Positions 10,921 to 26,837 of a stretch of DNA of 64,000 nucleotides are shown here, piece after piece. Position 1 is the stretch's first letter. The number at the start of each line of letters is the position of its first letter. Source of the DNA: a bacterium (lineage in GTDB: Bacteria > Desulfobacterota > Desulfocorpusculales > Desulfocorpusculum). The notes below the pieces were generated by a model. That model did not search any database. It saw only the letters and a program-made list of their open reading frames with translations, and was not told the origin of the DNA. The stretch spans positions 16,661 to 80,660 of the forward strand of contig JBBFLE010000002.1 in the NCBI GenBank assembly GCA_037481695.1, read 5' to 3'. The translations under genes and the position numbers were made by a program.

Positions 10921-11090
10921 CCTGCCTTACTCCCGTCTGAGGCTGCAAGAGCAGTTCTATGCCTGGATTGAAACAAGGTTCATTCTCATGCTGGCGGTAT
11001 CCTCTAACTCTTCTGCCCCTGAGACTCCAACTGGCAGAGCCCTTGCACCTTCAAAATCATGCAGGATGGCTCAGGGGCTTTTTTCCACGC

Positions 11091-11387
11091 TCAGCCCCCT
11101 GTCCTTAGCCTTCTGATCTCAAAGACCACTGGATTCTGAGCGTCGGGACAGGCATGAGTGGCAACATCTGGATCGCTCAGCCAGGGAAAATGAGCGCCAT
11201 AGCGCATGGCGAAGACCTTGGGCAACATGCTGTACATGGCGCTCATGCATATCTTGCCTTTGACGCTCATGCCGTCGAATAGGATCTCGTCCCCCACCTT
11301 GTGCCCTGCCGCACAGGTGCCTTTCTGACTTATGACCTTGGCCAAGACCTCGAACTCCCCGCTGTGAAAGCCTGTTTCCTGGCTCAT
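11091..11387 (-). CDS. small Cys-containing protein, possibly TIGR04076-like
   Basis: 98 aa with KGTCAAGHKVGDE...GKICMSAM...ACPD...NPVVFEIRR pattern recalled as TIGR04076-like. Family assignment is from memory only. Confidence 0.4.
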   Translation of the reverse strand: MSQETGFHSGEFEVLAKVISQKGTCAAGHKVGDEILFDGMSVKGKICMSAMYSMLPKVFAMRYGAHFPWLSDPDVATHACPDAQNPVVFEIRRLRTGG

Positions 11388-11708
11388 GGCTGACCTCCAT
11401 GGGTTCTAGGGGTTTTAAATGGCCCAAAACCCATGTACCACATTCCCGCCATGGGCACAAGAGCAGGTGCAGGGCTCCTTGGAGAGGCCAGGAAATGATT
11501 TCCAAGAAAGCCAGCCGGGGAAGCTTAGGTTTCCCATGTCTTGGGGTGAATTTGAATCTGGTCCCACAGGCTTTGCTCCCACCCACAGGCAGCAGTGGAG
11601 GTGTTCTTGGAGTTGAAGTTGTTCGCCCTGATCCGGTTTGTTTGTTCTGGCTTAGGGACCTAAAGAGCAAGGCCCTCAAGGAAACTTTGGGATCCTTGGC
11701 GGTTTCTC

Positions 11709-13391
11709 TTAGAGTTTCCTTCGGGAGCGCACTTCTTCTTTTATTCTTTGTATGTGCCCCCTTCCCAAACCCTTTACCTCGCAGCCCAGCTCAAAGAACC
11801 TTCTTATTCTAAGATCATCCAAGATCCCGAAACAATCCACCACGGCCAGAGGCTTGCCTGCCATGTGCACCACTTCCTCCGGCACCAGGCCCAAATAAGG
11901 CTTGTGCCGCACGGCCAATACCAGGGCATCTGCTCCCGAAAGGGCCTTGGCCAGATCCTTCTCCACTCTTAGATCCTTAAGCCTTTCCTGATTCCTAAAA
12001 AACCTGGATCTGGAGCCTCCGTCAGCCGGGTAGGAATCCTGTTTTTCCATTTCCCACCAGCGCTGCACGTAAGGGTCATGCACCATGACCTCAGCCCCCA
12101 TCTCCACCAACTTCCTTGCAACCAGCTCCGAGCCGCTGTATCTGGTATCCCCCACATCCTCCCTGTACGAGGCCCCCAGCAGGGCCACCTTGGATGCGGC
12201 CACTATTCTGCCCATATTCCTTAGAGCATCCCTCACCAACCTTGCCACATGCAGAGCACGAGTATCGTTTATGTCTATGGCCAAGGGGGTTATCTTGAAG
12301 ATCTCGTCTTCAAACCCCATGAGGGTATGGTAAGCCCAGACCCCCAGACCACCGTCCTTGGGAAGGCAATAGCCGCCTATGCCCGGGCCTGGGAAGATTA
12401 TGTTGGAGTGAGTGGGTCTTACCTTTATTGCCTCTACCACCTTTATGAGATCCACCCCATTGCGTTCGGCAAAAAGGCTCCACTCATGCAGAAACGCCAA
12501 AATAGTTGCGCGATATGAGTTCTCCACTATCTTACAGGTCTCGCTTTCTATGGGCCTGTCCAAAACCGTGAGGGGGTAGTCCCGCACATTGATGACATTG
12601 GAGAGGAACCTTACCACCTTATCCCTGGATTCGGCATTGATCCCACTGCATACACGCCAGAAATCCCTTATGGAGGCCACGTAATGCCGCCCGGGCATGA
12701 CCCGCTCGAAGGAGTGGGCCAAAACAGGCTCCCGCCCCCCCAACCCTCTTTCCTCAAAGGCTTTTTTCAAGATGGGGTACGCCACGTATTCTGTGGTGCC
12801 CGGAGGTACCGTGGTCTCTATGAGCACCAAGCAATGGGGCTGGATCCTCTCACCTATGATCCTGAGGCTTTCTTCCAGGGCCTTTATGTCCGCATAGCCC
12901 TTTCGCACATCCCCCAGTGTCTCCTTGTGATAATCGCACTGCACATCCACCACCACCACGTCTGCCAGACAAAGGGCATCATAAGCAAAGGTGGCTGTTA
13001 GGGTCTTCTTTTCCTTCACGCAACGTCTCAGGAGCCTGGGAACTTCCTGGTCCTCTGCGGAGATGGGTGGTAGGCCCCTGTTGAGGTACTCGATCTTCCA
13101 GTACGAACGTGTGGAGGGCCTTTGCATGGCTATGACAAAATAAAGAGGTTTGCCTGTGGAGGGATCCACGGAATCGGCCACCACCCCCGCCATGACAGCT
13201 CCCACAAAGCCAACCCCCATAACCACCACCACCTCACGACCCAAAAGCCTTTGTTCAGCTACCAGAAGCTCCAAACGCTTGAGCTCTGCAACAGCCTTTT
13301 CCTTGTCAGGAAGGGGAAACACCTCCCCCTCCGGTGAAACCGAAACTGGAGCTGATCCAATTTCAACCTGGGCTCCCAAATCCTTGCTCAT
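11709..13391 (-). CDS. nucleotide-sugar dehydrogenase (UDP-glucose/GDP-mannose dehydrogenase family)
   Basis: Rossmann N-terminus (VVVMGVGFVGAVMAG), catalytic-Cys motif GGYCLPKD, C-terminal UDP-binding-like region. Track ORF begins at 13448; the ATG at 13391 (MSKDLGAQ) has a better purine-rich upstream region. Confidence 0.75.
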   Translation of the reverse strand: MSKDLGAQVEIGSAPVSVSPEGEVFPLPDKEKAVAELKRLELLVAEQRLLGREVVVVMGVGFVGAVMAGVVADSVDPSTGKPLYFVIAMQRPSTRSYWKIEYLNRGLPPISAEDQEVPRLLRRCVKEKKTLTATFAYDALCLADVVVVDVQCDYHKETLGDVRKGYADIKALEESLRIIGERIQPHCLVLIETTVPPGTTEYVAYPILKKAFEERGLGGREPVLAHSFERVMPGRHYVASIRDFWRVCSGINAESRDKVVRFLSNVINVRDYPLTVLDRPIESETCKIVENSYRATILAFLHEWSLFAERNGVDLIKVVEAIKVRPTHSNIIFPGPGIGGYCLPKDGGLGVWAYHTLMGFEDEIFKITPLAIDINDTRALHVARLVRDALRNMGRIVAASKVALLGASYREDVGDTRYSGSELVARKLVEMGAEVMVHDPYVQRWWEMEKQDSYPADGGSRSRFFRNQERLKDLRVEKDLAKALSGADALVLAVRHKPYLGLVPEEVVHMAGKPLAVVDCFGILDDLRIRRFFELGCEVKGLGRGHIQRIKEEVRSRRKL

Positions 13392-13533
13392 GTACACACC
13401 CCTCTCCCCCTGCCTTTTCCATCCATCCAGTTCCCCGGGAAAATCCAATCATTGGCATGGATCAGATCACCCCGGGGCTGCATGACTTACTCCACTGAGT
13501 CCCCTTATTCAGGAACAATCCCATCGGGGCATC

Positions 13534-14517
13534 CTACTGCCCAGGCTGCCCCCTCAGGGCTTGCAGGTCTGCCTCCACCATCATCTTGACCAGCTCCTGG
13601 AACCCCACCTGGGGTTCCCAGCCCAGAATGCGCCTGGCTCTATCAGAGTCTCCCCTGAGTTCAAATATCTCGGCTGGTCTGTAAAGAGCCTCGTCCACAA
13701 CCACATGCTCTCTCCAATCCAGGTCCAGATAAGAAAAGCAAATCTGCACGAGTTCTCTCACGGAGTGGGTCTCGCCCGTTGCTATGACATAATCCGAGGG
13801 TTCTTCATGCTGTAGCATCAGCCACATGGCCTTGACATAGTCCCCGGCATAACCCCAGTCCCTGCGGGCATCCAGATTACCAAGCCGCAGCTCTTTGGCC
13901 AATCCCAGCTTTATACGGGCAGCAGTGCGGGTCACCTTTCTTGTCACAAACTCCAGTCCCCTCCTAGGTGATTCATGGTTGAAGAGAATGCCGCTTAAGG
14001 CAAAGAGCCCGTAAGCCTCCCGGTAGTTCCGAGTCAAGTGGAATCCAGCCACCTTGGATATACCGTATGGGGAACGGGGATTAAAGGGGGTCTTCTCGTT
14101 CTGAGGTGACTCGAGGGCGTTGCCGAACATCTCGCTGGAGCCTGCAAAGTAAAACCTGCAGCCCGGGGCCGCATCTTTGAGGGCTGCCAGCACGAAGTGG
14201 GTGCCGTTGATGTTCGTGTTTATGGTGGAAAACTCATCTTCAAAGGAATAGCTCACAAAGCTTTGTGCCGAAAGATGGTAACACTCGTCGGGCTGTATGC
14301 GCTCTATGACCTTGAAGATGCTGGCATAACTCTCCAGAGAACCAGCATGTATGTGAACCCTGTCCAAGAGGTGACGGATCCTCCAGAGCCTCTGCTCGGG
14401 ATCCTCTATGGCCACCCTCCTGACTATACCGTGTACCTCATAGCCTTGATCAAGGAGAAACTCCGCCAGATAGGAGCCGTCCTGTCCTGTGATGCCTGTT
14501 ATCAAAGCCTTTTTCAA
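13534..14517 (-). CDS. gmd: GDP-mannose 4,6-dehydratase
   Basis: 327 aa with short-chain dehydratase N-terminus (ALITGITGQDGSYLAEFLL), catalytic YGISK and typical Gmd C-terminal layout. Confidence 0.9.
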   Translation of the reverse strand: MKKALITGITGQDGSYLAEFLLDQGYEVHGIVRRVAIEDPEQRLWRIRHLLDRVHIHAGSLESYASIFKVIERIQPDECYHLSAQSFVSYSFEDEFSTINTNINGTHFVLAALKDAAPGCRFYFAGSSEMFGNALESPQNEKTPFNPRSPYGISKVAGFHLTRNYREAYGLFALSGILFNHESPRRGLEFVTRKVTRTAARIKLGLAKELRLGNLDARRDWGYAGDYVKAMWLMLQHEEPSDYVIATGETHSVRELVQICFSYLDLDWREHVVVDEALYRPAEIFELRGDSDRARRILGWEPQVGFQELVKMMVEADLQALRGQPGQ

Positions 14518-14621
14518 GGTTCAGCTCGCCGGGCCGGCCCTCCTTTGAGAATCCTGGGCACCCACACATGCCCCAAGCCCACCCGGCCGTGAGGCCTTGG
14601 GCCAACGGGATCTTGCCCAGA

Positions 14622-15911
14622 TCATTGTCTTTGTGCTTTGGCCTGCATTTCCTGGCGCAGCTTCCCAATGTAGCGCTGTCCAAAGACCACAATGGTGCCC
14701 ACCAAGATGGACAATACACCGGCCATAAGCACGTTGGTGCTGGTCTTGGGTTTGTATTTTCTCACTGGAGGCACAGCCCAGTCTATCACCTGGAAGGCCA
14801 CGTCCTCTTTGGATTCTTCTATACGGGCCAGCTCATACTGTTGGGTCAGAAGCTCCAGGACCTTCTCGTGGAAAAGCACGTCCCTTTTGAGCCTTCCGTA
14901 CATGAGGCCCAGCTCCGGGGCTCCGGCCAAGGAAAGCTTGCTCCCCCCTTCCTTGGAATGGTTGGCCTCCAGACGCTCCAGCTGTTTTCTGAGTTCGCTC
15001 AGCTGAGACTCCAAGAGCTGCACCTTGGGATTCAAAGCAGTGGCATAGGTTCTTACCACATCCAGCTCTACTTCCTTGGCCGCCACCATGCCCTTTAGCT
15101 CTGCAAGTCCCCTTATGGCAGCCTCGGCCTGCTCGTTCATGGCTACAAAACGCTTCTCCTGCTGGAAATCCTTGAATCTCTCCTCGGCCTCGGACAATTC
15201 CCTCTTGGTCTTGGAGACCTGGGCTTCCAAAAAGAGCCTTTTTTTCTTGGCCACACTCAAGGCATTGGCATTTATGAAGCTCTCCAGCTCCAAGATGTGG
15301 GCATTGGCTATCTCTGAGGCCAAAGTGGGATCCTTCCACTCCACTGTTATGTTCACAAGCCCTGTTCTTCTCTCCTCGTTTACCCTGGTGATCCCCCTTA
15401 GGGCTTTGACACCATCCTCCAGGCTGGGCTGCTTTGAGGGATCCTTCCACTGATTCCTGAGCATGTCCCATTGCTCCTCGAAGAAGATCCTCATCAGATC
15501 CAACCTGGAGATGACCTTTTCCTTCAAGGTTCGGCTCTCCAATATGGCCACCAGGGTCTGGGATGGAGTCGCCTTTCCTCCGGGCAAGGAAAGCCCCATA
15601 CCTCCCAGCATGGCAATGTAAGAAGAAAACCCCCCCTCTCTGGATTCCATGGGAATGAGAGAAGCCCTGGCCTGATATATCTTGGGAAACACGAAAAGAC
15701 TCAGAATCCCTGTGGAGATGGTGGCAGCCAGAAAAAGGCAAAAAAGAAACCTGCGTCGGCTCCAAAGCACCAGCCACAGTTCCAGGAGGTCCAGGCCTTC
15801 CTCCTCGGCCCAGGACGATTCCCCAGCTCTATAGGGGCATGGGGCTTGCTGAAGCCCTACCCCTGGAAAAGCTGCCCCCTTTTGTTCTGTCTGCAAATCC
15901 TCTTCCTTCAT
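14622..15911 (-). CDS. polysaccharide chain-length determinant (Wzz/Wzc N-terminal-like co-polymerase), no kinase domain
   Basis: N-terminal motif LDLLELWLVLWSRRRFLF plus a TM segment, long coiled-coil periplasmic region, C-terminal TM (LMAGVLSILVGTIVVFG). Track ORF starts with GTG at 15947; the first ATG is at 15911. Confidence 0.65.
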   Translation of the reverse strand: MKEEDLQTEQKGAAFPGVGLQQAPCPYRAGESSWAEEEGLDLLELWLVLWSRRRFLFCLFLAATISTGILSLFVFPKIYQARASLIPMESREGGFSSYIAMLGGMGLSLPGGKATPSQTLVAILESRTLKEKVISRLDLMRIFFEEQWDMLRNQWKDPSKQPSLEDGVKALRGITRVNEERRTGLVNITVEWKDPTLASEIANAHILELESFINANALSVAKKKRLFLEAQVSKTKRELSEAEERFKDFQQEKRFVAMNEQAEAAIRGLAELKGMVAAKEVELDVVRTYATALNPKVQLLESQLSELRKQLERLEANHSKEGGSKLSLAGAPELGLMYGRLKRDVLFHEKVLELLTQQYELARIEESKEDVAFQVIDWAVPPVRKYKPKTSTNVLMAGVLSILVGTIVVFGQRYIGKLRQEMQAKAQRQ

Positions 15912-16013
15912 GGACTGTATCCCAACCTGGGTAAAAAAATCCCCCACTTACGGGCTCACCCGCACCAGCTTCTTTCCAGAGCCCCAAGGGCACTTTCCCC
16001 TGGCCTTTGAGTC

Positions 16014-16505
16014 TCAGCGGGATCCGTGATGCGGAGGGGCACCATGGTGTGCCGGAGCCCCGTGATGTGCCGGGGTGCCGTGATGTATGGGGCTTCCACC
16101 AGGGCCAGCCCCGGCCCCCACAACAGTGCCCGCTGCAGTGGCTGCTGCTGCCGCCACTCCTCCCACGGCCAAGGCAGCACTGCCCGCCACAGTTGCTGCC
16201 ACAGCACCCACGGTCACCTCCGAGGAATTGAGAGCCGCTGCCACAGCCGCAGGCGTGCCCACCAGAGCCCCTCCCCCCAATTCCTGAGGTATGGGCACAG
16301 CCACCATGTTCTCGGGAATCGAGGCAGGCACCTGGCTCGAAAAAGTTATGCCTGGATGGGTCTTTATGGCTGCCAGTTGGCCGGCCGTAACATGGACCTG
16401 CTTTCCCGATGGAAGTGTCACAGGAACCGCTTCCGAAGCCCACAGAGGTGGAAGCAGGAAACTTGAGAGAACCAAGAGCCCTACCGCCCAAAACAGAGAT
16501 CTCAT
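16014..16505 (-). CDS. secreted Ala/Gly/Val-rich protein with C-terminal histidine-rich repeats
   Basis: ATG at 16505 is preceded by a strong Shine-Dalgarno (GCAAGGAGGTGGCTC-ATG on the coding strand) and followed by signal peptide MRSLFWAVGLLVLSSFLLPPLWA. C-terminus is HHGTPAHHGAPAHHGAPPHHG. The longer track ORF (to 16601) lacks an RBS. Confidence 0.5.
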   Translation of the reverse strand: MRSLFWAVGLLVLSSFLLPPLWASEAVPVTLPSGKQVHVTAGQLAAIKTHPGITFSSQVPASIPENMVAVPIPQELGGGALVGTPAAVAAALNSSEVTVGAVAATVAGSAALAVGGVAAAAATAAGTVVGAGAGPGGSPIHHGTPAHHGAPAHHGAPPHHGSR

Positions 16506-16601
16506 GAGCCACCTCCTTGCTGTTCTAACCCTGCCCTTGAAGGGCTTTGGGTTCAATGGGGTTTTTACCACCAAAACACGCCAAAATAAAGCCCAGGCCA
16601 T

Positions 16602-18689
16602 TTATTTTTTCATGTCCTCCAGGTGTTCTGCCATGTGGGTCGGAAGCAGATCTTCCAGAAACTCGTACAACATGTTGAAGCGAGCCACGCTCTGGCCCAC
16701 ATCCCTGGTCCAGGGGGAGAAGGCGTAGCTGTGTTTCACTGGTGTCTCTTCCCTGGTGAACATGGCCATGGGAATGGAGATGAAGATCCCCTTGTCCTGG
16801 TAACCCTTGTTGAAGGGATCGCTGAAGCCTGAGGTGTCCGTGTATGTGTACCAGAATCCAAAGGAAGCTCCGGTGTCCCAGTGGCGTGCAACCTCTAGCC
16901 TAGCCCCAGGATCACCTGCCAGGAAGCGCCCAACTCTCAGCTTGGCTGCCAAGCCCAGGTCTGGCTGGAGGTAGTTGAGCGATCCAAGCAGGGTGTAAGC
17001 ATGGAAATCCATCAGGCCCAGCTGGGATTCAGGATCTCTTTTGACGACCCAGTCCCCCATCACACCAACACTCCACCTTCCATCCCCAATTACATGGAGA
17101 AGTTCCCCGCTCAGCCCCGCGTACTGGGTCTCCAGATAGCCTGCGGTCATGCGGCCGAAGCTGCCCCCTCCCAGGTTCCAAACCTGATCCAATAAAAGGG
17201 AATTGAACCTGGGATCGCTTCTTTTCTTGTATAGCACCATATCCGACCGCACAGGGTGTTCACCCAAAGGCGCTATGGCGCTCTTTATGTTGTTGTAAAA
17301 GGGGTAATTGAACCAGGCATAGAAGTCAGAGCCCTCCCACAGGGAGGCTGCTCCCCAGGCATCCACCCCAGCCCTTGCTCGGAAGAAGCCCGAGGGATCA
17401 TCCAGCCAAGTCTCCAGGGCGGGCTTTACACCATAGTCCAAGATCTCTGGATTCAGGCCCATGCGCTCCAGGGTGTTGGAGCTTGAAGCCGAGGAGGGAA
17501 GTACCCTGTCATTGGGCCCGGCCTTTTTTATCTCCACCATGCGGCGGAACTCCTCTTTGCTGTATTTGCCGGCCAAAAACCCCATGAAGTCCATGGCCTG
17601 GAAATCAATCTTCACCGTGGGCACACTTCTTCTTAAAGCCACCACCTGTATCCTGGGCACATCCAGAGGTGCCAGGGCCACTGCGGTCCTCATAACCCTT
17701 CCCATGGCCTGGGCCTCTGAGAGGAACCTGGGGTTTTCATATTGGACCCTTACATGGTTTTCTCTCACCGAGACGGCCACGTGAAGGAAGCCCTGTTCCC
17801 GAAGCGCCTGATCCAGACGATCTTCCACCTCCCGGGGATCCCTCTGTCCCAAGGGTCTTCTGTCCACTGGCGAAGTATAGGGTTCGTCTGGCTTTGGAGG
17901 AAGGAGCCTCTTACCCAGGGTGAAGTCCGTGCTTACGCTTAGGCCGAAGGTGTCTCCTCTTTGGAAAGATGCCTCCACCGATATCCAGCTAACAGGCCTG
18001 AAACGCACGCCCAGGTTGATCCTCTTGGGGTCAAATCTCCAAAGGGCTGGACTATAAAAACCCACTTTAGGAAGGTCCGGCTGGTTCTTGACACCTCCGC
18101 TTAGCCTGTCTTTTGTATAATCCATGGGATTATACTCTGCCACCAAAGAAAGCCTATCCTCCCAGAGCTTGAGTTCCAGTCCGCCGAAGGGTCCCCTTAT
18201 GCGGCCAAAGCCGTAGCCCAGGGTGAAATCCAGGGGATAAATCTGACGGCTCATGACCAGATACTGGGTGGAGAAGGTCACGTTGTCGCCAAAAAGATCG
18301 TTGGCCCCCACTGCTATGGCAGGAAGCAGTCGGGATTCGGCCAGGATCTGGTACTTGGCGTCGAACTCCCTGATCTTGGTGTTCCCGTAACCTTCCCAGC
18401 CTGGATCTGTTATAGGCTGGTTTAGGACCTCTGTGACCCTCCCGTTGACCTCCAGGCCTGGGAGGAAACCAAGTCCAAAGTAGTAGGTCCTAAACGGATC
18501 CACGTTGGAGGCCCCGATGCGCATCCTACCGTCTTCCAGAATGCGGGCCGTGGGGATCTCCATCAGGCCGGTTATCCCGGTGTTGGAGGCAGACACAAAT
18601 GGTCTATCCTGGGCCTCCACAGCCCCCCCAGCTTCAAGCCCAAGAAACACAGTAAGCACAAATAATGCCAGCCATCTTTTCCCATGCAT
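16602..18689 (-). CDS. YjbH/GfcD-like outer-membrane polysaccharide-locus protein (putative)
   Basis: 695 aa with signal peptide (MHGKRWLALFVLTVFLGLEAGGAVEA), size and aromatic-rich beta-strand-like C-terminus consistent with the YjbH family. Assigned from memory. Confidence 0.5.
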   Translation of the reverse strand: MHGKRWLALFVLTVFLGLEAGGAVEAQDRPFVSASNTGITGLMEIPTARILEDGRMRIGASNVDPFRTYYFGLGFLPGLEVNGRVTEVLNQPITDPGWEGYGNTKIREFDAKYQILAESRLLPAIAVGANDLFGDNVTFSTQYLVMSRQIYPLDFTLGYGFGRIRGPFGGLELKLWEDRLSLVAEYNPMDYTKDRLSGGVKNQPDLPKVGFYSPALWRFDPKRINLGVRFRPVSWISVEASFQRGDTFGLSVSTDFTLGKRLLPPKPDEPYTSPVDRRPLGQRDPREVEDRLDQALREQGFLHVAVSVRENHVRVQYENPRFLSEAQAMGRVMRTAVALAPLDVPRIQVVALRRSVPTVKIDFQAMDFMGFLAGKYSKEEFRRMVEIKKAGPNDRVLPSSASSSNTLERMGLNPEILDYGVKPALETWLDDPSGFFRARAGVDAWGAASLWEGSDFYAWFNYPFYNNIKSAIAPLGEHPVRSDMVLYKKRSDPRFNSLLLDQVWNLGGGSFGRMTAGYLETQYAGLSGELLHVIGDGRWSVGVMGDWVVKRDPESQLGLMDFHAYTLLGSLNYLQPDLGLAAKLRVGRFLAGDPGARLEVARHWDTGASFGFWYTYTDTSGFSDPFNKGYQDKGIFISIPMAMFTREETPVKHSYAFSPWTRDVGQSVARFNMLYEFLEDLLPTHMAEHLEDMKK

Positions 18690-18720
18690 GGGGCGCCAGC
18701 CTCTTGAGGCCTCATTGCCT

Positions 18721-21423
18721 TCACAGGAGGGTCACCAGCACCCCTGCGGCCACACCTATCTGGTAAAGCACGGTGGTGACATCCTTCAGGCCTTTCAGGA
18801 AAGGAACCCTCTCCAGATCCTCAGGCACAACGATGGTGTCTCCTGGATCCAGGTACCTGGCCTGGAAGTCGTTCACCTGGAAGCGATAAGCCTCGGCGTT
18901 CCAGGTCACCAGGCTGGAGAGCCTGGAGGGGCCAACAGCCCTGCCGTCCACCTTGAGCACGTATATCTCGCTGGTGTCGGCCTGAGGAGTGGGGCCTCCG
19001 GCCAGCTGCAGGTAATGTGCCACGGTTTTTCCCGGCTCGTACAGGAAGGCCGAGGGGTTGTACACAGCCCCCATGACATTTACCACATCCGTACGCTCCG
19101 GCACATGGATCATGTCCCCATCCTCCATCTCCACGTCCGAAGGTGTTCCCTCCAAGGCCCTTGGGTGGGAGACCTGAAGCACCAACCTGCCCGTTGGCTT
19201 GACCTGCCTGAGTCGGGCCAGCAGTTCCATGCGCCTCCTGGCGGCCTGGGCCTCCACTTCGGCCTCTTCTTTACTGGTGGCCCCTGCGGCCTTGCTCAAA
19301 TTCATGGAGGCTACCTGTGCCTCCAGGCGGGAGAGGGTCTCCTCCAGACGTTTCTGTTGAAGGGCCTGAATGGATCTTCTGGCGAAAAATACACCCTTGA
19401 GATAGGCTTTGTCGGTGAAGCCTCCTGCTCTGTTCAAAAGGGAGCTCAGTTTCTCGCCCTTTTTCACCGCATAGGCACCCGGATGCATGACCTCTCCGGT
19501 GAGATGCACAATCCTGTAAAGCTGCCAGTCGGGCACCGTGCGCACGAACAGATAGTCGTTCTCCTCCAGGGGCAAATCCTTGTCCTTCTCCTGTTTCAAG
19601 GCTGCTGCCAGGTCCAGGGTGAGCCTCTCTGTCACAGGGCCTTTCTGGGTTATCTTTACCCTGGTTAGCTCCCCCACGGCCGAGGCCTCGGGTCTTAGTC
19701 CTCCGGCCATCTTGATCAGGTCTGAGACGGTCATCTTCTCCCTCATACGGTACTCGCCGCTTCGCCAGACCGCACCGGTGACCCGCACAGTAGGCCGAAT
19801 GTTGAATTCTTCTTTACTGAAAACATAAATGGTGTCCTGGGGATGCAAGAGGAGGTCCTGCTCAGGATCTCTTTGCAAGGCCTTTCCCAGATCAAAGGAG
19901 CGCAGCTCCTCGTGATAATCAGGGGGCACCAGTCGCCTCACCAGCCCAAAGTCGAATATGGCCTCTGGCATGAGGTCCTCAGGCCGCCCCAGGATGTCGC
20001 TCACTCTCATCCCCTCCCTCCAGGCGTATACCCCCGGCCTCATCACATGGCCTGCCAAGCGCACCTCGTTTATGATGGAAGGGTTTATGGCAAAGACCTG
20101 CACTATGTCTCCGTCCTGAAGCTGTATGTCCTTTTCCCCCACCAGATCAGCCAAGGCAGTGTCCAGAACCATCCTGGCCCTTCCCTGGTACACCCTTTCC
20201 ACCTGGACCCTGTGGACGTAGGCAGTAGCAGTGGGGCCGCCGGCCATGGCCAGGACCTCGCTCAGGCGCCTCTCCCCCTTGAGCTCGTAGATGGCCGGCT
20301 GCTTGACCGAACCCGCAACGGCCACCAGAGGCCCCACATAAGGGATGAAAACCGTGTCTCCGTCCTGCAGGAGCCTGTCCTGACTCTTGTCTCCCTTGAG
20401 CAGGAAGTCATACAGGTCCATCCTGGCCAGGGTCTGACCGTTTCTGAGGAGCCTCACATCCCTCATGCTCCCGGTCTTGGAAGGACCCTGGGCTGCAAAA
20501 AGAGCGTTCATGATGGTGCTCATGTTTGTAAGCTCGTAAGTGCCTGGGACCCTGGCATTGCCCACCACAAAGACCCTGATCCCCCTGAGTTGGCCTAGGC
20601 CCACGCTCAAAGAGTAGCCCGAGTAGTACTTCTGGATCTCCTTGTCCAGGTGAGCCTTGAGACTGCCGTACGGAACGCCTGCCACGGGTATATCCCCCAC
20701 GGTGGGCAGGTGAATCTTTCCTTCCCTGTCCACCTTGAGGATGTAATCCCCCTGGATCTTTCCCCAGACCCTTACCTGTATCTCGTCCCCAGGACCGATC
20801 CTGTAAGAGGGCTCGGGCACCCTTGCATCCACCGGAAGAGAGGGCGTCACCTGGGCCCTGGCAAACATGGCGTATCCGAACTGGGTGAGCTTTCGGTCTA
20901 TATGAGCTGGAAACTTGCCTTGCACATATTGTTCGAAGGCAGACGTCTCTTCTGTGGGAATAGAGGCCCATTTCTGAGCCGAGGCCGGAAGCTCCCGGCC
21001 TCCAAAGGTGTCAGGCTTTTCACTGAAGGAGCCCTCTGCTGCCCTGGACTCCGCGGTGGCAGCCTCGGGCGCCCCATCGGGTGGGGGACTCACACCAAGG
21101 GGAGCCTGGGGCCCCCTGAGGGGTTCCAGGCCAGAGCCTGCTCCAGGCGGAGCCTGCTTAACCCTCATCTCCCTGGCCTTCTCCAGAATCTCCGCAGGGA
21201 TCTCCTGCCCTGGAGCTTGAGCCTGGGGGCTACCGCTTGGGGCCGTGACCCCTAGGCCTTGGCTGCTTGGGACACCAGAGGGTAAGGCACGGCCTCCACC
21301 CGGACCTTGAAAGGGAATCTCCACGGCCTGAAAAGCCACGGAGCTTCCACCTAAGGCAAAGATGCTGAAAAACAAGATTTGAAAAAACCCAGACACCACT
21401 TTTGGCTTCCCCAAAAGCTTCAT
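18721..21423 (-). CDS. polysaccharide export protein (Wza-like, multiple SLBB domains)
   Basis: Signal peptide from the ATG at 21423 (MKLLGKPKVVSGFFQILFFSIFALGGSSVAFQA). Repeated SLBB-like units (IGPGDEIQVRVWG..., LQDGDTVFIPY, LQDGDIVQVF, EDGDMIHVP, LDPGDTIVVP). C-terminal hydrophobic helix. Confidence 0.75.
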   Translation of the reverse strand: MKLLGKPKVVSGFFQILFFSIFALGGSSVAFQAVEIPFQGPGGGRALPSGVPSSQGLGVTAPSGSPQAQAPGQEIPAEILEKAREMRVKQAPPGAGSGLEPLRGPQAPLGVSPPPDGAPEAATAESRAAEGSFSEKPDTFGGRELPASAQKWASIPTEETSAFEQYVQGKFPAHIDRKLTQFGYAMFARAQVTPSLPVDARVPEPSYRIGPGDEIQVRVWGKIQGDYILKVDREGKIHLPTVGDIPVAGVPYGSLKAHLDKEIQKYYSGYSLSVGLGQLRGIRVFVVGNARVPGTYELTNMSTIMNALFAAQGPSKTGSMRDVRLLRNGQTLARMDLYDFLLKGDKSQDRLLQDGDTVFIPYVGPLVAVAGSVKQPAIYELKGERRLSEVLAMAGGPTATAYVHRVQVERVYQGRARMVLDTALADLVGEKDIQLQDGDIVQVFAINPSIINEVRLAGHVMRPGVYAWREGMRVSDILGRPEDLMPEAIFDFGLVRRLVPPDYHEELRSFDLGKALQRDPEQDLLLHPQDTIYVFSKEEFNIRPTVRVTGAVWRSGEYRMREKMTVSDLIKMAGGLRPEASAVGELTRVKITQKGPVTERLTLDLAAALKQEKDKDLPLEENDYLFVRTVPDWQLYRIVHLTGEVMHPGAYAVKKGEKLSSLLNRAGGFTDKAYLKGVFFARRSIQALQQKRLEETLSRLEAQVASMNLSKAAGATSKEEAEVEAQAARRRMELLARLRQVKPTGRLVLQVSHPRALEGTPSDVEMEDGDMIHVPERTDVVNVMGAVYNPSAFLYEPGKTVAHYLQLAGGPTPQADTSEIYVLKVDGRAVGPSRLSSLVTWNAEAYRFQVNDFQARYLDPGDTIVVPEDLERVPFLKGLKDVTTVLYQIGVAAGVLVTLL

Positions 21424-21563
21424 GGAAGCACCCCTGATCCCTCTAAATTTGCAGGAACCCTCTCCAAAGGATCCCCCAATGCCAACTCCCCAAGCCGTGC
21501 CCCCCTTTTTCAACCATCACAGCCCACCAGGAGACCACTCCCCCCGGTCTTCTTGGCACTTTC

Positions 21564-22238
21564 TCAAGGGGCAGCAGATGCAGCTATCAAGGTGGCCTCC
21601 TGGTTGTCCTCCTGAACCGCGTAGACCAATACTCCTACAATCTCCAAATAAGGTGCTGAAGGAACAGGTGTGACCCCCGATGCCCAAAGATTGAGCGTGC
21701 CGTTTAGGGTCTTGTTGACCTTGACCACGCCCGAATTGTTGGCCAAGACATCATCAACCCAAAAACCACCCACTTGCCAAAGGGGCTCGAAACATCCTAT
21801 CCAGTTGCACCTGTCCCAGGTGGCATTGAACATGTAAGGCCCTGTTTGTCCTGCCCGATGCATCCTGGTTATGAAGGTGACAAAATAGGATTGGCCCAAG
21901 GTCCCAAGATAGGTACCTGTGGAATTGGTGATGGTAGCCGGAAGCTTTGGAACCCTGCTCAGGTTGACGGCTATCTTGAACTTGTCTGGATTTCTTGTGG
22001 TAGTGAGCTTGACCGTGCCCGTTATATTGGCCAGCTGTAAGGCAGCCCTCCCGTAAATATCCTGAGCCCATGAGGTACTTTCTGGGGTGTTTGCGGCCGC
22101 CCAACTGGCCCAATCAGCCACATTGTTGTATGAGACGTTGAAGGTTATGCTTTGTGCCAGGGCCTGTGTGGAGGCCAACAAAACCGTTCCCAGAACCATT
22201 GCCCAAGTCAATCTCTTTGCCCTCTTTTTCATCTCCAC
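21564..22238 (-). CDS. hypothetical secreted protein
   Basis: 224 aa with N-terminal signal peptide (MKKRAKRLTWAMVLGTVLLASTQALAQ), Asn/Thr/Trp-rich mature part. No recognised domain. Confidence 0.5.
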   Translation of the reverse strand: MEMKKRAKRLTWAMVLGTVLLASTQALAQSITFNVSYNNVADWASWAAANTPESTSWAQDIYGRAALQLANITGTVKLTTTRNPDKFKIAVNLSRVPKLPATITNSTGTYLGTLGQSYFVTFITRMHRAGQTGPYMFNATWDRCNWIGCFEPLWQVGGFWVDDVLANNSGVVKVNKTLNGTLNLWASGVTPVPSAPYLEIVGVLVYAVQEDNQEATLIAASAAP

Positions 22239-22328
22239 GCCTCCTTCCTTCGAGATTCCCTCCCTTGTACAAGGGAGCCAAAAGCCAGATCAGAAATCGG
22301 GCCTCAAGCCTTGGCCATGGGCCCTCTG

Positions 22329-23498
22329 TCACAGGGCTTTTTGAATCAAAGTAGCCACCTTCTCCTGCACATCAGGGCTAAGATAAGGGTGCATGGGAAG
22401 ACTCAGGATCCTTTGGGCAGTATCCTCGCTCACGGGAAAATCTCCCTCGTGGTAACCCATATGGGCAAAGGCGGGCTGCAGATGAAGGGGCTTGGGGTAG
22501 TAGACCATGGTGGGTATGCCCTCTTCCTTTAGCCTTCCCCTGAGCCTTTCTCTTTGCCCATGGTCCTGAGCCAGGATGCAGAACTGAGCCCAGGCGCTTT
22601 TGCATTGCTGGGGTATCCTGGGAACTCTTATTCCAGCACATCCTGCCAGAAGAGCCGAGTATCGCGCTGCCACCTCCTGGCGAAGCGCCAATTCCTCTTG
22701 GAATATCTCCAGCTTTGCAAGGAGCACAGCCGCCTGAATAGTGTCCAGCCTTCCGTTTAAGCCCACCCGTACATGCTCGTACTTGTCCCTGCCAGCCCCA
22801 TGAACCCTTATGGAGCGAAGCACAGATGCAATCTCATCATGTCTTGTGAAACACATGCCTCCATCCCCGTACGCCCCCAGAGGCTTGGCAGGAAAGAAAG
22901 ATGTGGCCCCGCAATCGGCCAGCCCTCCGGCCCTGCGGCCTCCCCTCTCACCACCTAAAGATTGTGCGGCATCCTCGATCACCCAAAGATCCCTGGATGT
23001 TGCCAGAGAGCAGATGGCATCGTACTCTGCGGGCAGGCCAAAAAGATCCACGGCTATGACACAGCGGGCCCTTGATATCTTGCCAACCATTTCCCTTGGA
23101 AGGGGATGGATACCGGAGTCCTTTCTTTCCAAGGCCTCCACGGCCCTGGCCAATTGCTCTGGAGCCAGGTTGAAGGTATTGGGATCTATGTCCACGAAGA
23201 TTGGCATGGCCCCTACCAGCATCACTGCTTCTGCAGTGGCTGCAAAGGTAAAGGGAGTGGTCAATACCCCGTCGCCTGGGCCCACACCCAGGGCCATGAG
23301 AAGCATCACCAGAGCATCGGTGCCTGAAGAGCAGGCCACCGCATGCTTGACTCCCACGAAGCAGGCCAACCTCTCCTCAAGCTCTGCCACCTCGGGCCCC
23401 ATCACGTATTGGCCGTGCTCCAGGACCCTCTGTATCCTCTGTAGGAGCTGGTCCTTGATACGTCTTTGCTGAGCAGCCAGGTCAACGAAGGGGATCAT
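22329..23498 (-). CDS. DegT/DnrJ/EryC1/StrS-family PLP-dependent sugar aminotransferase
   Basis: Typical N-terminus MIPFVDLAAQQRRIKDQL from the ATG at 23498 (preceded by a GGAGG-like site) and fold-type-I aminotransferase body. The longer track ORF (to 23768) would overlap the upstream caspase gene. Confidence 0.85.
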   Translation of the reverse strand: MIPFVDLAAQQRRIKDQLLQRIQRVLEHGQYVMGPEVAELEERLACFVGVKHAVACSSGTDALVMLLMALGVGPGDGVLTTPFTFAATAEAVMLVGAMPIFVDIDPNTFNLAPEQLARAVEALERKDSGIHPLPREMVGKISRARCVIAVDLFGLPAEYDAICSLATSRDLWVIEDAAQSLGGERGGRRAGGLADCGATSFFPAKPLGAYGDGGMCFTRHDEIASVLRSIRVHGAGRDKYEHVRVGLNGRLDTIQAAVLLAKLEIFQEELALRQEVAARYSALLAGCAGIRVPRIPQQCKSAWAQFCILAQDHGQRERLRGRLKEEGIPTMVYYPKPLHLQPAFAHMGYHEGDFPVSEDTAQRILSLPMHPYLSPDVQEKVATLIQKAL

Positions 23499-23539
23499 GG
23501 CCTGCTCTTTCCCACTGCCTACATGTCCCATCTCCCACC

Positions 23540-24361
23540 TCACTGGAAAGGCTCCAGCATTCTTTTGGTCCTTGAGGATTTGGGACCTTCCAATTGGGGC
23601 ACCTGGCTGAAACCATTGAACTTCAAAGAGGCTCGCACCCTTCTGAGAAGCTCGCCCCGGGGGATATCCCCACCTGTATCTCTTAGATGTTTGCAAAGAT
23701 AGTATGTGAAAGCTCCGTTGAAAGCACCGCCTATGAAGGCATCTGCCGAGGTTTGGTTCTCCCGGCATCCAGCAAAAAGCACATGCCCCATGGGATTTGC
23801 GCCTCTGAGAAGCCTTCTGACGGGCAGCTCCTCATCCACCCTGGCCTGTATGTCTGCAGGAGGCTCCAGAAACCTTGGGTACATGGCCATTTCCATGGGC
23901 AAAAGGCTCAGGGCCGCCATCTCCCTGGTGCCGGTCCCTGAGTGGCAGCAGTCCAGGATCACCTCCAGGACAGCTCCCTGGGGCAGCCTGGCAAAAATCC
24001 CTTTCAGGTCATCATCTGAGATGTACTTACCCTCCCAGTTCATGTCATGGGGACAGATCACTTCGTCCATATGGTCGCGAAGCTCGTCTCCGTCCCGGTC
24101 CCTGACCTGGGAGCCGTGGCCTGAGAAATGAAACAGAAGCCTGTCTGCTGGGCCAGCATCCTTCACAAGCCATTCCAGCCTCTCCAGGATGGCCTCCCGG
24201 GTGGCACGCTCATCCACCACAAGGCGTACCTGCTCGGCCTGGAAGCCAAAATACTTGAGGAGCACGTCCCTCATGTTGGTCACGTCATTGACGCACCCCT
24301 GCAGATCACACCCAGGCAAACTATACTTGTTAATTCCGACCAGGAGGGCTTTTGGGGCCAT
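23540..24361 (-). CDS. caspase-family (peptidase C14, metacaspase-like) protein
   Basis: 273 aa with ALLVGINKY...L.GCVNDV N-terminus, catalytic His region (HFSGHGSQ) and catalytic Cys region (EVILDCCHSGTG). Confidence 0.75.
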   Translation of the reverse strand: MAPKALLVGINKYSLPGCDLQGCVNDVTNMRDVLLKYFGFQAEQVRLVVDERATREAILERLEWLVKDAGPADRLLFHFSGHGSQVRDRDGDELRDHMDEVICPHDMNWEGKYISDDDLKGIFARLPQGAVLEVILDCCHSGTGTREMAALSLLPMEMAMYPRFLEPPADIQARVDEELPVRRLLRGANPMGHVLFAGCRENQTSADAFIGGAFNGAFTYYLCKHLRDTGGDIPRGELLRRVRASLKFNGFSQVPQLEGPKSSRTKRMLEPFQ

Positions 24362-24691
24362 TGTCTCCCCCTTTCACCCAGCTCCCTTCATTCCCTGCCG
24401 TACACGTGGGAAAGAGCCGAAAACTCCCGCACCACTTCCAGACGGTCCTGCTCCAAAAATCTCTCTATGGCTTTCCTGGCAACACACCTGGAGTAGCGAG
24501 CCCAGCAGTTCTCTTTTTCACAGAAACTGTGTTTGGCACCTTCTTCCCCCTTCATTCTGTGATGAGAACACAAAAAACAAGAACGCAAGAGCATACCCAC
24601 CTCCTAAAGTGCGTGGAAAGAAGGCCTCTTGGGCCCCCTGGAAAGGATCTTGCCGTGGAAGAGCACCATTTTCTGACCCAAGGTCTGCAGA

Positions 24692-25240
24692 TCACGGAGC
24701 CCTCTCGATCAAAGATTCGTGAAGATGCACCCTGGCTTGAAACCCTAGCACAGCCAGGAGGATCTCAACCCTTCCCTGATCGTCCAGATCCCGCTCGAAG
24801 ATCCCCAAAAGGTCCTTGAAAGGGCCTGAAACTATCCTGACCCTGTCTTTGGGGCGCAGACGCCTTCCCACCCTTACAAGCCCATGAGAGTCCATCTGGC
24901 TTCTGATGGTGCTGATCACCTCATCCGGCACCGATGTGGGTTCCCCCTGGGTGCCCAACACCCGCCTGACTCCCCTGGTCCAAACAACCTGCGGATACTC
25001 ATCGGGATAATGGAAACGGGCAAAAAGGTATGATGGGAAAAGAGGTCTGATGGCCTCCCTGGCCTTGAACCTCCTGAAACGCACCACCCGAATCTTTGGA
25101 AAAAACAACTCCAGACCTTTCTCGGCCAGGTGAACCAGGGCCCTTTCTTCTTCTTTGGGATTGGTTTGAACAACGAACCATCTGGGTGTGCATTCCCCCG
25201 AAGGAGTGATGCTGGCTCCTTCCATCACTGATCGACTCAT
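24692..25240 (-). CDS. NusG-family transcription antiterminator paralog (UpxY/LoaP/RfaH-like)
   Basis: 182 aa with NGN domain (WFVVQTNPKEE...PLFPSYLFARF) and KOW-like C-terminus (RVRIVSGPFKDLLGIF). First gene of the minus-strand polysaccharide locus. Confidence 0.75.
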   Translation of the reverse strand: MSRSVMEGASITPSGECTPRWFVVQTNPKEEERALVHLAEKGLELFFPKIRVVRFRRFKAREAIRPLFPSYLFARFHYPDEYPQVVWTRGVRRVLGTQGEPTSVPDEVISTIRSQMDSHGLVRVGRRLRPKDRVRIVSGPFKDLLGIFERDLDDQGRVEILLAVLGFQARVHLHESLIERAP

Positions 25241-25421
25241 AGGGCCTCCTTAGCGCCCCTTAAGGCCCAATTCCGTCGCATCGGGTTTTGGGACAAAATG
25301 GGTTTATGATATGTACACCGTCACCATTGACTTGTCAAGCTCATGAAACTCTACCCCGTTTGTACATAAATCGCCAGGGAACTCTTGTCCTGCTTGACTT
25401 CTCGTGCCTTTCTGTTTCACA

Positions 25422-26837
25422 ATGCGGATCCAAGAAGTGCTTTGGTTTTTTTCCTATGGGAAAATTTCTTCTGCAGATCGAGGAGCTCAGGTGTCTTCTC
25501 TCCAGAGACCGCAGACAGACCTTCCTCAGATATATACTGTAAGCAGGCTTACTCAGGAAATCAGGGATATTTTGGAAGGAAGGTTCCCTTCCATATGGGT
25601 GGAGGGGGAGATCTCGAATTTCCACCTACATTCTTCAGGCCACATGTATTTTATCTTAAAGGATGAACGTTCCCAGATCAGGGCCGTCATGTTCAGGGGC
25701 CAGGCCAAGGAGTTGAGTTTCAGGCCTGAAGACGGAATGCACGTACTTTGCCTTGGAAGAATAGGGGTTTATGAGGCCAGAGGGGAATACCAGCTTTACC
25801 TTGACTTCCTGGAGCCCAAAGGCGTTGGGGCCATGCTCCTGGCCGTGGAGCAGCTCAAGGCAAGGCTGGCCCTGGAGGGTTTGTTTGATCCTTCCCGCAA
25901 GAGACCCCTGCCTTTCTTGCCTAGATGCGTGGGAATAGTCACATCTCCCACCGGAGCAGTCATAAGGGACATGCTGCAGATTCTGGGCAGGCGTTTCCCC
26001 AATTTGCATGTGTTGGTGAGGCCTGCCAGAGTCCAGGGTGAAGGGGCGGCCCAGGAGATCTCCCAAGGCATAAGGGACCTGAATGAGTGGCCAGGAGTAG
26101 ACCTCATAGTGGTGGCCAGGGGAGGTGGCTCCCTGGAGGACCTTTGGGCCTTCAACCAGGAAGAGCTGGCCCGCACCATAGCCTCCTCCAGGATTCCCGT
26201 GGTGAGCGCAGTGGGACACGAGGTGGATTACACCATAGCCGATTTGGTGGCTGACCTCAGGGCTCCCACACCTTCGGCTGCAGCCGAGTTGATAGTTCCT
26301 GTCCATGCCCAACTTCACAGAAATCTGAGCGATTTGGCAGCACAGTTGTTCTCGGCCATGAGAAAACAAATAAAAAGGCTAAGGGAGGAGCTAAAGGGAT
26401 TGGTGAGCAGGCCGCCCCAATTGAGACGCCGTCTTGCCCAAGAAAGAATCGGCCTAGACGAGCTTCACCAGAGACTCCAGAATTCCATGGGGCAGATCCT
26501 GGAAAGAGCCAGACTGGAAAGGCAGCACCTGCTTCAAAGCCTTTCTCATCTGGATCCCAGGGCCAGCATACCTGCACTGAGAGCAGAGCTAGCGGCTATT
26601 GCCCAAAGACTAAGCTCCTCTTTCAAGTTCAGTCTCCAGGAAGGCCGGGCAGCTCTGGAAAGGGAAAAAGGCCTTCTTTATTCCTTAAGCCCTGCTCAGG
26701 TTCTGGCCAGAGGTTACAGCATCGTGAGGCTGCTGCCCCAGCAGAAGGTGGTGATGGATTCCTCTTCTTTGAAAGAGGGAGACCTGCTCAGAATCACCTT
26801 CCACAAAGGGGAAAGTACCTGCAGGGTGGAGAAATAA
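25422..26837 (+). CDS. xseA: exodeoxyribonuclease VII large subunit
   Basis: OB-fold N-terminus (IYTVSRLTQEIRDILEGRFPSIWVEGEISNFHLHSSGHMYFILKD), catalytic core, coiled-coil C-terminus. Start uncertain: GTG at 25404 or ATG at 25422. No xseB seen downstream. Confidence 0.85.
   Translation: MRIQEVLWFFSYGKISSADRGAQVSSLQRPQTDLPQIYTVSRLTQEIRDILEGRFPSIWVEGEISNFHLHSSGHMYFILKDERSQIRAVMFRGQAKELSFRPEDGMHVLCLGRIGVYEARGEYQLYLDFLEPKGVGAMLLAVEQLKARLALEGLFDPSRKRPLPFLPRCVGIVTSPTGAVIRDMLQILGRRFPNLHVLVRPARVQGEGAAQEISQGIRDLNEWPGVDLIVVARGGGSLEDLWAFNQEELARTIASSRIPVVSAVGHEVDYTIADLVADLRAPTPSAAAELIVPVHAQLHRNLSDLAAQLFSAMRKQIKRLREELKGLVSRPPQLRRRLAQERIGLDELHQRLQNSMGQILERARLERQHLLQSLSHLDPRASIPALRAELAAIAQRLSSSFKFSLQEGRAALEREKGLLYSLSPAQVLARGYSIVRLLPQQKVVMDSSSLKEGDLLRITFHKGESTCRVEK

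Follow-up and report, generated by a model that had tools for sequence, protein, structure and literature searches.

To our knowledge, no function has been established for the outer-membrane barrels of the GfcD/YjbH family or for the GfcA/YjbE proteins, even in Escherichia coli. The E. coli operon gfcABCDE-etp-etk encodes export functions only, its polymer being supplied by the O-antigen locus, and operons of the yjbEFGH type have been linked to exopolysaccharide production (PMC8592465). Homologues of YjbH/GfcD, for which a double-barrel architecture has been described, occur near Class 1 and Class 2 outer-membrane polysaccharide export (OPX) genes, with 19 cases catalogued near Class 2B OPX genes, and OPX proteins with integrated GfcC modules have been proposed to dock on such barrels (Saidi et al., PMC9603273). 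The genes of one pathway need not be adjacent, as the polysaccharide clusters of Myxococcus are split by up to >1 Mbp (PMC9603273). This work describes a polysaccharide export locus at positions 11709-25240 of a 64-kb stretch of DNA (hereafter the window) from an uncultured member of the Desulfarculaceae, a relative of the sulfate reducers within a Thermodesulfobacteriota lineage.

The locus fits the export-only type of operon already known from gfcABCDE-etp-etk and yjbEFGH of E. coli, yet it is neither a strict gfc/yjb nor a Kps system. We hold it to be fairly probable that it contributes the periplasmic and outer-membrane part of a surface-polysaccharide pathway, whose cytoplasmic-membrane assembly half would lie elsewhere in the genome. 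This reading is preferred because an orthologous module in a related locus (L052; related contigs and loci are denoted here by L numbers) carries a WbpB/WbpD fusion, a Wzx flippase and a GT4 glycosyltransferase beside its OPX and YjbH genes. The locus in the window comprises 12 genes, all on the minus strand and with intergenic gaps of 26-142 bp. Its features, in the direction of transcription, are as follows.

25310..25338, minus strand: promoter-like element (TTGACA at 25338-25333, 17-nt spacer, TACATA at 25315-25310)
24692..25240, minus strand: specialised NusG paralog of 182 aa, first gene of the predicted operon (PF02357, 8.4e-19; NGN domain, 68.3 bits)
24388..24600, minus strand: small cytoplasmic protein of 68-70 aa, rich in Cys (CxxC and CxxxxC motifs); its gene separates those of the NusG paralog and the caspase
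23540..24361, minus strand: caspase-like cysteine peptidase (Peptidase_C14; PF00656, 1.5e-33) with an intact dyad of His (SGHG) and Cys (DCCHSG)
22329..23498, minus strand: WbpE-like nucleotide-sugar aminotransferase of 389 aa (DegT domain, 4e-107; start codon verified)
21564..22232, minus strand: secreted, lineage-specific protein of 222 aa with an SPI-type signal peptide and no lipobox
18721..21423, minus strand: OPX protein of 900 aa (Pfam: Poly_export 1e-16, SLBB 2.9e-51, SLBB_2 6.2e-44)
16602..18689, minus strand: YjbH/GfcD-family outer-membrane beta-barrel protein of 695 aa (PF06082, 452.8 bits, 3.6e-135)
16014..16505, minus strand: YjbE/GfcA-like low-complexity secreted protein of 163 aa with a signal peptide, a conserved domain of ~70 aa and four HHG repeats (the His-tailed protein)
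14622..15947, minus strand: polysaccharide co-polymerase (PCP; Wzz 1.9e-10, GNVR 1.3e-6)
13534..14517, minus strand: Gmd, GDP-mannose 4,6-dehydratase (PF16363, 1e-118; TIGR01472, 400.8 bits against a cut-off of 415)
11709..13391, minus strand: long NDP-sugar 6-dehydrogenase of 560 aa (three UDPG_MGDP_dh domains; TIGR03026, 185.5 bits against 189.8)

Start codons were set downstream of those of the maximal open reading frames (ORFs) for the DegT aminotransferase (23498), the 222-aa protein (22232), the OPX protein (21423), the His-tailed protein (16505) and the dehydrogenase (13391). The start codon of the PCP is uncertain, its orthologues being 433-439 aa long. In public entries (MEJ5375516-MEJ5375518), proteins of the window are annotated merely as hypothetical, SLBB-domain and YjbH-domain proteins. 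An earlier note, made from the letters of this DNA, had listed a NusG, a caspase, a DegT protein, an exporter, YjbH, a PCP, Gmd, a dehydrogenase and two secreted proteins, and each of these calls was reproduced, with domain families assigned by profile search. The listed genes are real, and one gene had been overlooked, namely the Cys-rich ORF at 24388-24600. The same note described the co-polymerase as lacking a kinase domain, in agreement with the profile searches, which detected Wzz and GNVR domains and no kinase domain.

Assembly genes were searched for in the whole window and beyond it. Among essentially all ORFs of ≥ 150 aa in the 64 kb, Pfam detected no family of glycosyltransferases (GTs), Wzx, Wzy or ABC-2 proteins, and its matches for the large ORFs in the rest of the window are to housekeeping, redox, two-component sensor, protease and similar genes. 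Only one polytopic protein, a LysE transporter (28423-29037), emerged when the hydropathy of every ORF of ≥ 120 aa in the 64 kb was scanned. Contigs L011 and L012, which carry identical edge proteins, extended the view by ~10 kb to the left and ~8 kb to the right. No polysaccharide genes were present in these ~18 kb, which include a DNA polymerase B, a branched-chain amino-acid ABC importer and a TRAP transporter, and KpsM/KpsT, KpsC/KpsS and Kdo genes were found neither in the window nor in the extensions. The earlier note's statement that the locus has no GT, polymerase or flippase gene therefore extends to the 64-kb window and to ~18 kb of the flanking genome, which it had proposed to inspect for GT, Wzx and Wzy genes. 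It had also named GT domains in the hypothetical proteins as the finding that would overturn it. A GT hidden in the 222-aa or 163-aa protein was ruled out, as Pfam searches at E up to 10 and NCBIfam searches were empty and the model of the 222-aa protein is a beta-sandwich.

A survey of distant YjbH homologues (33-46% identity) then covered 80 metagenome loci as well as 8 annotated contigs. Of 86 loci, 44 encode an OPX homologue together with YjbH, and 25 a PCP homologue. The most informative of these loci is L052 (177-13223), with the gene order WbpE-like aminotransferase, WbpB/WbpD-type fusion, long dehydrogenase, OPX, YjbH, Wzx, GT4 and an Asn-synthase-like gene. The identities to the window proteins are 58% for the aminotransferase, 72.5% for the dehydrogenase and ~40% for the OPX protein, which ends in the same C-terminal helix. 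The fusion protein (530 aa; GFO_IDH_MocA and hexapeptide domains) supplies the WbpB and WbpD steps that are absent from the window, and the flippase is of the Wzx type (Polysacc_synt_3). Judged by its gene content, L052 is a complete version of the export and precursor module, with genes for Wzx-type, undecaprenyl-linked assembly alongside.

Initiating transferases (Bac_transf or WecA) and GTs are also encoded beside YjbH in many loci, among them L002, L003, L005 and L015, and beside the related module of L014. In the latter (307-7198), the OPX protein is 50% identical to that of the window and the order is OPX, barrel, small gene, PCP and then a WecA-type transferase, with a Wzi barrel (PF14052) in place of YjbH. 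From this substitution, the barrel appears to be an exchangeable module (YjbH or Wzi). The earlier note had offered two explanations for the missing enzymes. The first, that the synthesis genes are elsewhere, gains support from the comparison with L052 and from the initiating transferases beside other YjbH/OPX loci. The second, that the locus exports something other than a classical Wzy-dependent polymer, is weakly favored by a PCP nearest to KpsE and by a conserved low-complexity secreted protein next to YjbH. From these gene orders, the export module of the Desulfarculaceae has most probably become separated from its assembly line.

The exporter belongs to the OPX (Wza/KpsD) family, with a Poly_export domain followed by about six SLBB/SLBB_2 stretches. 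After the signal peptide and a disordered linker rich in Pro/Ala, the protein has Poly_export, the SLBB domains (about six), a helical hairpin, a C-terminal module resembling GfcC and, at its end, a hydrophobic helix. The N-terminal end of the mature region resembles Wza (sequence match 2e-16), and a profile built from 51 homologues matched Wza (2j58, 7.5e-26) and GfcC (3p42, 1.1e-3) in non-overlapping regions, of which the GfcC region is C-terminal. The AlphaFold2 (AF2) model (pLDDT 77.5) displays SLBB domains arranged as beads on a string, then a long hairpin of helices, more SLBB domains and finally a helix at the end. Foldseek searches with this model retrieved Wza (1.4e-17) and full-length GfcC (3p42; 2.7e-9, TM-score 0.57). 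Pfam matches to Wza_C (PF18412), as well as to Caps_synth_GfcC, are absent from the protein; the hydrophobic C-terminal segment is kept across the 51 homologues and takes a helical form in the AF2 model, where its pLDDT is low. The built-in GfcC-like module, as modelled, is among the newer points of this locus. Because Wza-like and GfcC-like regions share one protein, the OPX protein is assigned to Class 2, the KpsD type, according to the criterion of PMC9603273; its 900 aa far exceed the median for Class 2B (824 aa), and it contains more SLBB repeats.

In the YjbH protein, the best PF06082 stretch covers positions 171-657 of the 658 of the model, and PF06082 is present in all 84 homologues collected. 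No solved structure is detectable for it by sequence. Two homologues, P0073 and P0083, carry SLBB domains within the same polypeptide, an arrangement for which the GfcC-GfcD fusion OtnG is an analogue (PMC8592465). The PCP has two transmembrane helices; a coiled coil is located in the periplasm, and ~20 aa of cytoplasmic tail follow the second helix. Pfam detected no kinase domain in it and no tyrosine kinase or phosphatase in the locus. Among solved structures, KpsE (8tsh_E, 9e-15, residues 104-413) is closest to the PCP, with Wzc scoring more weakly (1e-7) and no match to the Wzz PCP-1 structures; this nearness to KpsE is also one of the newer points. The best NCBIfam model is BexC/CtrB/KpsE (TIGR01010), matched over the full length at 76 bits, far under its cut-off of 437.5; the scores for all curated families are likewise far under their cut-offs.

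Compared with gfc of E. coli, the locus shares a YjbH/GfcD barrel, an OPX protein, a PCP, a candidate for the small low-complexity secreted protein (GfcA) and a GfcC-like structure, and it equally lacks GT, Wzx and Wzy genes, so that supply of the polymer from another locus is likely here too. The 163-aa protein fits GfcA/YjbE by position, signal peptide and composition, although PF11106 gives no match to it. Unlike gfc, the locus has no separate GfcC/YjbG (PF06251) gene or Pfam match, the GfcC-like module being located inside the 900-aa multi-SLBB OPX protein. No GfcB/YjbF lipoprotein was detected by Pfam, and the sole candidate, the 222-aa protein, has neither a lipobox nor a GfcB-like structural match. 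Etk kinase and Etp phosphatase are lacking and the PCP is nearer to KpsE, whereas a NusG paralog, the Cys-rich protein, the caspase, the 222-aa sandwich protein and three nucleotide-sugar enzymes are added, in a host of the Thermodesulfobacteriota. With the yjbEFGH locus of E. coli and the wbfDCB-type loci of Vibrio (as cited in PMC8592465), the window shares a YjbH-family barrel with an adjacent Ala/Gly/Ser/Thr-rich (AGST) YjbE-like protein and the absence of assembly enzymes. It differs from yjbEFGH in lacking YjbF and YjbG and in having the OPX and PCP genes within the operon, and its YjbE-like protein differs from YjbE by an extra N-terminal domain and a tail of HHG repeats. The EPS/MASC/BPS systems of Myxococcus xanthus with Wzp (PMC9603273, PMC9601211) also combine an OPX protein with a dedicated outer-membrane beta-barrel, belong to the former Deltaproteobacteria and have scattered genes, a likeness that depends on the predicted split in the window host. 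Here, however, the barrel is of the YjbH/GfcD type and not an 18-stranded PgaA-like Wzp, the OPX protein is not a short Class 3 protein, and no kinase is associated with the PCP.

Neither precursor pathway is complete within the locus. Among solved structures, the aminotransferase is closest to 4qgr (381 bits) and, over its full length, to WbpE (3nu7, 359 bits), with perosamine synthase at 168 bits; by homology, its substrate is predicted to be UDP-2-acetamido-2-deoxy-3-oxo-glucuronate. The best solved relative of the dehydrogenase is an NDP-N-acetyl-D-galactosaminuronic acid dehydrogenase (3g79, 3.2e-46), which suggests a WbpA-like enzyme with a UDP-HexNAc uronic acid as product. As the aminotransferase is WbpE-like rather than perosamine-synthase-like, it belongs with the dehydrogenase and not with Gmd. 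A route through DegT and Gmd to GDP-perosamine was also considered, and it is ruled out by the scores of 359 against 168 bits and by the orthologous gene order in L052. The pair resembles part of the WbpA/B/E/D/I pathway of Pseudomonas aeruginosa for UDP-ManNAc(3NAc)A, in that a close WbpE relative is combined with an NDP-HexNAc-type 6-dehydrogenase, and the same two genes flank the WbpB and WbpD fusion in L052. Unlike in P. aeruginosa, the window lacks equivalents of WbpB, WbpD and WbpI, and the dehydrogenase is unusually long and divergent. A partner for Gmd is equally absent from the locus, so the earlier note's remark that precursor functions are present applies to the dehydrogenase, the aminotransferase and Gmd but not to the WbpB/WbpD steps or the Gmd partner.

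Orthologues of the aminotransferase occur in L052, L081 and L084 (53-58% identity). Long dehydrogenases (545-560 aa) with 72-79% identity are encoded beside OPX-YjbH in L052 (3106-4743), L084 (2156-3799) and L090 (17-733). Such identities, where YjbH reaches only 34-36%, suggest that the precursor genes either are very strongly constrained or were transferred horizontally.

The locus opens with the specialised NusG paralog. RfaH and UpxY keep RNA polymerase elongating through long polysaccharide operons, and the window protein resembles RfaH/UpxY/LoaP in its NGN domain and KOW-like region (KOW 17.4 bits, under the cut-off) and, as for UpxY, in being encoded by the first gene of a long polysaccharide operon. 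Unlike these proteins, it falls under all curated cut-offs (RfaH 94.2 vs 144.5 bits; UpxY 72.5 vs 100; LoaP 54.1 vs 125; NusG 54.5 vs 135.7), and no ops-like recruitment element was identified for it. The promoter-like element lies upstream of the NusG-paralog ATG at 25240, separated from it by a conserved leader of ~65 nt. Alignment to the corresponding intergenic regions of the orthologous loci L009 and L010 shows the two hexamers, as well as much of the leader, to be invariant. The element was missed by a generic scan because its -10 hexamer is a weak consensus match, and this consensus scan, with a count equal to that of shuffled sequences, was uninformative. Terminator-like sites in the locus are no commoner than in shuffled sequence (19 found vs 17.7 expected), and Rfam gave no match in 10000-26000 at E up to 0.1. 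The cassette is predicted to form one operon of 13.5 kb.

In the preferred reading, the conserved promoter-like element upstream of 25240 would drive a 13.5-kb transcript, and the NusG paralog, by analogy with RfaH/UpxY, may hold RNA polymerase in elongation through its own operon. The dehydrogenase and the WbpE-like aminotransferase would provide two steps towards a 2,3-diamino-uronic-acid precursor (UDP-GlcNAc3NAcA type), and Gmd would provide GDP-4-keto-6-deoxymannose for a 6-deoxyhexose. The WbpB/WbpD functions, a reductase or epimerase for the Gmd product, the initiating transferase, the GTs and the flippase/polymerase would be supplied by other loci, with a Wzx/Wzy-type, undecaprenyl-linked pathway as the most likely assembly partner. 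The kinase-less PCP may form an inner-membrane and periplasmic cage, the OPX protein would span the periplasm and dock on the YjbH/GfcD barrel with its GfcC-like module, and the YjbE-like Ala/Gly/His-rich protein would be a conserved partner or cargo of the barrel.

Several points weigh against this reading. The partner Wzx/Wzy/GT genes elsewhere in the genome are predicted by comparison with other loci, and the single operon is predicted from sequence. Three or four conserved genes (caspase, Cys-rich, 222-aa and partly the His-tailed protein) stand outside the proposed model. The frequency of stand-alone modules is an upper bound: among 27 loci with ≥ 4 kb on both sides of YjbH, 13 had no match to GT/initiating-transferase seeds, and GT detection in metagenomic loci is insensitive with only 11 BLAST seeds. 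In favor of the reading, L004 and L013 are stand-alone by Pfam annotation, and stand-alone export modules are a recurrent genome organisation rather than an anomaly. Two further points against it concern the export proteins themselves, namely that, by sequence comparison, the PCP is nearer to KpsE, of the ABC-transporter-dependent type, than to Wzc, in a locus without a BY-kinase or phosphatase, and that the OPX protein is a KpsD-type Class 2 protein.

These last two points lead to the main rival explanation, in which the locus is the outer half of an ABC-transporter-dependent, group 2-like pathway, with a polymer that is finished in the cytoplasm and carried not by Wzx/Wzy but by a transporter of the KpsMT type, encoded at another site. 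The likeness to KpsE/KpsD of group 2 (Class 2B OPX) includes a PCP whose best solved relative and full-length top NCBIfam model are both of the KpsE family, an OPX protein that joins Wza-like and GfcC-like regions to a C-terminal helix (PMC9603273), and the lack of a tyrosine kinase and phosphatase. We nevertheless consider it unlikely. KpsM/T/C/S/F/U are all missing from the locus, and the window and its extensions contain neither an ABC-2 permease nor a matching ATPase, nor KpsC/S or Kdo genes; the KpsE-family score of the PCP is far below the cut-off given above. Moreover, the orthologous module of L052 directly precedes a Wzx-type MOP flippase and a GT4, and related loci hold undecaprenyl-phosphate initiating transferases (Bac_transf, WecA) and not Kps-type genes.

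Two further alternatives depend on the His-tailed protein. Besides its conserved domain and HHG tail, it has an Ala/Gly/Val-rich hydrophobic stretch ahead of the tail. It is 82-87% identical in L001, L009 and L010, with an invariant low-complexity region and invariant HHG repeats, and is under purifying selection, low-complexity region included (dN/dS 0.086). BLAST homologues adjoin YjbH in L035, L037, L043, L049, L062 and L071, the one in L071 also having the N-terminal domain. An analogous same-strand ORF of 60-165 aa lies within ~0-420 bp of YjbH in 34 of 67 independent, non-Desulfarculaceae loci with enough flank, against a background of 0.012 per kb for such AGST ORFs elsewhere in the same loci. 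Common to the proteins of this AGST family are a signal peptide, a region rich in Ala/Gly/Ser/Thr, a stretch of hydrophobic A/G/V/I residues, a run of Gly (often GGGDGG) and one of Thr/Ser; examples among L016-L095 are found in L024 (9172-9480), L071 and L074. A His occurs within the last 5 residues in 30 of 30 complete sequences, as read by eye from the scan output. PF11106 (YjbE) gave sub-threshold, full-length matches to two metagenomic AGST proteins (8.5e-5 and 0.12) and none to the window protein, and the family is largely invisible to current Pfam. The position by YjbH, the composition and these two weak YjbE matches tie the His-tailed protein to the GfcA/YjbE position of the enterobacterial operons. 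By these features, the protein is a member of a YjbE-like family that is widespread next to YjbH genes and is marked by a His signature at the C-terminus; this is another of the newer points.

It is conceivable, though quite unlikely, that the YjbH/GfcD double barrel is a two-cargo translocon. One barrel would take the polysaccharide from the GfcC-like end of the OPX protein, while the other would secrete or anchor the Ala/Gly-rich protein, with the His motif as a recognition or metal-binding signal, resulting in a protein-primed or protein-anchored capsule. In the Desulfarculaceae, the NusG paralog, the Cys-rich protein and the caspase would add a cytoplasmic control layer. Another proposal makes the Ala/Gly-rich His-tailed protein, possibly glycosylated, the main cargo of the double barrel; a protein-glycan conjugate would then be served by the OPX protein, the PCP and the sugar enzymes, with the caspase (clan CD) as its processing peptidase. 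The proposal draws on the recurrence of the AGST ORF next to YjbH, the terminal His and the purifying selection described above. It also draws on the speculation that GfcA is glycan-modified and exported by GfcD (PMC8592465) and on the resemblance of the N-terminal half of GfcD/YjbH to the amyloid transporter FapF (PMC9603273). We regard it as very unlikely, since secretion and glycosylation of the His-tailed protein are themselves putative, OPX and PCP proteins are polysaccharide-handling families, and half of the YjbH loci have no AGST ORF detectable at the threshold used. The caspase, unlike the YjbE-like protein, is confined to the Desulfarculaceae cassette and, having no signal peptide, would be unable to act on periplasmic substrates.

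Returning to the preferred reading of an export module with its assembly genes elsewhere, the conservation of the locus shows that it is maintained. The closest named genomes are uncultured Desulfarculaceae metagenome-assembled genomes (MAGs). A close-relative scan of GTDB genomes yielded three loci, and the wider comparison was built on metagenome contigs. Synteny with L001, L009 and L010 covers the entire cassette and both flanks, and BLAST showed that the cassette genes have the same order in L006 and L007; across these five contigs, cassette identities are 71-92% at the aa level, and none contains a GT. The flanks consist of xseA on one side and of two small ORFs, a bifunctional nuclease (BFN) and a LonC-like protease on the other. 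None of the 12 genes is disrupted, and in comparison with L009 their dN/dS is 0.04-0.15 (dS ~0.9-1.6); individual dN/dS values are 0.092 for YjbH, 0.097 for the NusG paralog, 0.082 for the caspase and 0.044 for both Gmd and the Cys-rich ORF. The intact ORFs and low dN/dS identify a maintained, functional unit and not a decayed cluster. Decay of a larger polysaccharide cluster into a non-functional remainder, stripped of its GT, flippase and polymerase genes, would account for the missing assembly genes and the missing parts of both precursor pathways, but such an origin of the locus is hardly credible, being essentially refuted by this selection analysis and by the gene order and promoter-like element kept among these relatives.

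Four of the genes, encoding the NusG paralog, the Cys-rich ORF, the caspase and the 222-aa protein, are confined to Desulfarculaceae-type cassettes (BLAST, 96 loci). The Cys-rich ORF is annotated as a gene in L001, L009 and L010 and is 88% identical in L009; it has no Pfam or PADLOC match. The caspase-like peptidase was considered as part of a defence system, and this was rejected, as the sole PADLOC match is to a generic caspase model (1.2e-23) and no partners were matched. The 222-aa protein is predicted to fold as a Greek-key, SOD-like beta-sandwich, and ~10 very close relatives were found among 5.8 billion proteins. The family ends in a near-invariant QEDNQEATLIAASPAP motif and contains an invariant Cys pair in DRCxWIGC.

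Outside the cassette, the two small ORFs between the dehydrogenase and nuclease genes (11091-11387 and 10618-10920, both on the minus strand; 98 and 100 aa, without Pfam match) are also present in L001 and L011. An ORF at 11119-11679 (186 aa) that overlaps one of them looks spurious, being Arg-rich and without Pfam match. A 739-aa ORF without Pfam family (31022-33241, minus strand) adjoins a Ser/Thr protein kinase gene (33436-34353), and a 740-aa gene without Pfam match is also called at the edge of L010. A multi-PAS histidine kinase (38886-41261, plus strand) bears a GNAT acetyltransferase domain at its C-terminus; as a combination of outputs, this is unusual.

For the biology of the YjbH family, the locus and its more than 80 relatives reveal that, across anaerobic lineages, the barrel keeps company with long OPX proteins that contain a GfcC module and with PCPs that lack a kinase. 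Next to roughly half of the barrel genes there is one for a small Ala/Gly-rich protein that carries the His signature at its C-terminus, which provides a concrete candidate for a partner of the barrel. If the two-cargo translocon were true, the AGST/His-tail family would be the first conserved candidate protein substrate for YjbH barrels.

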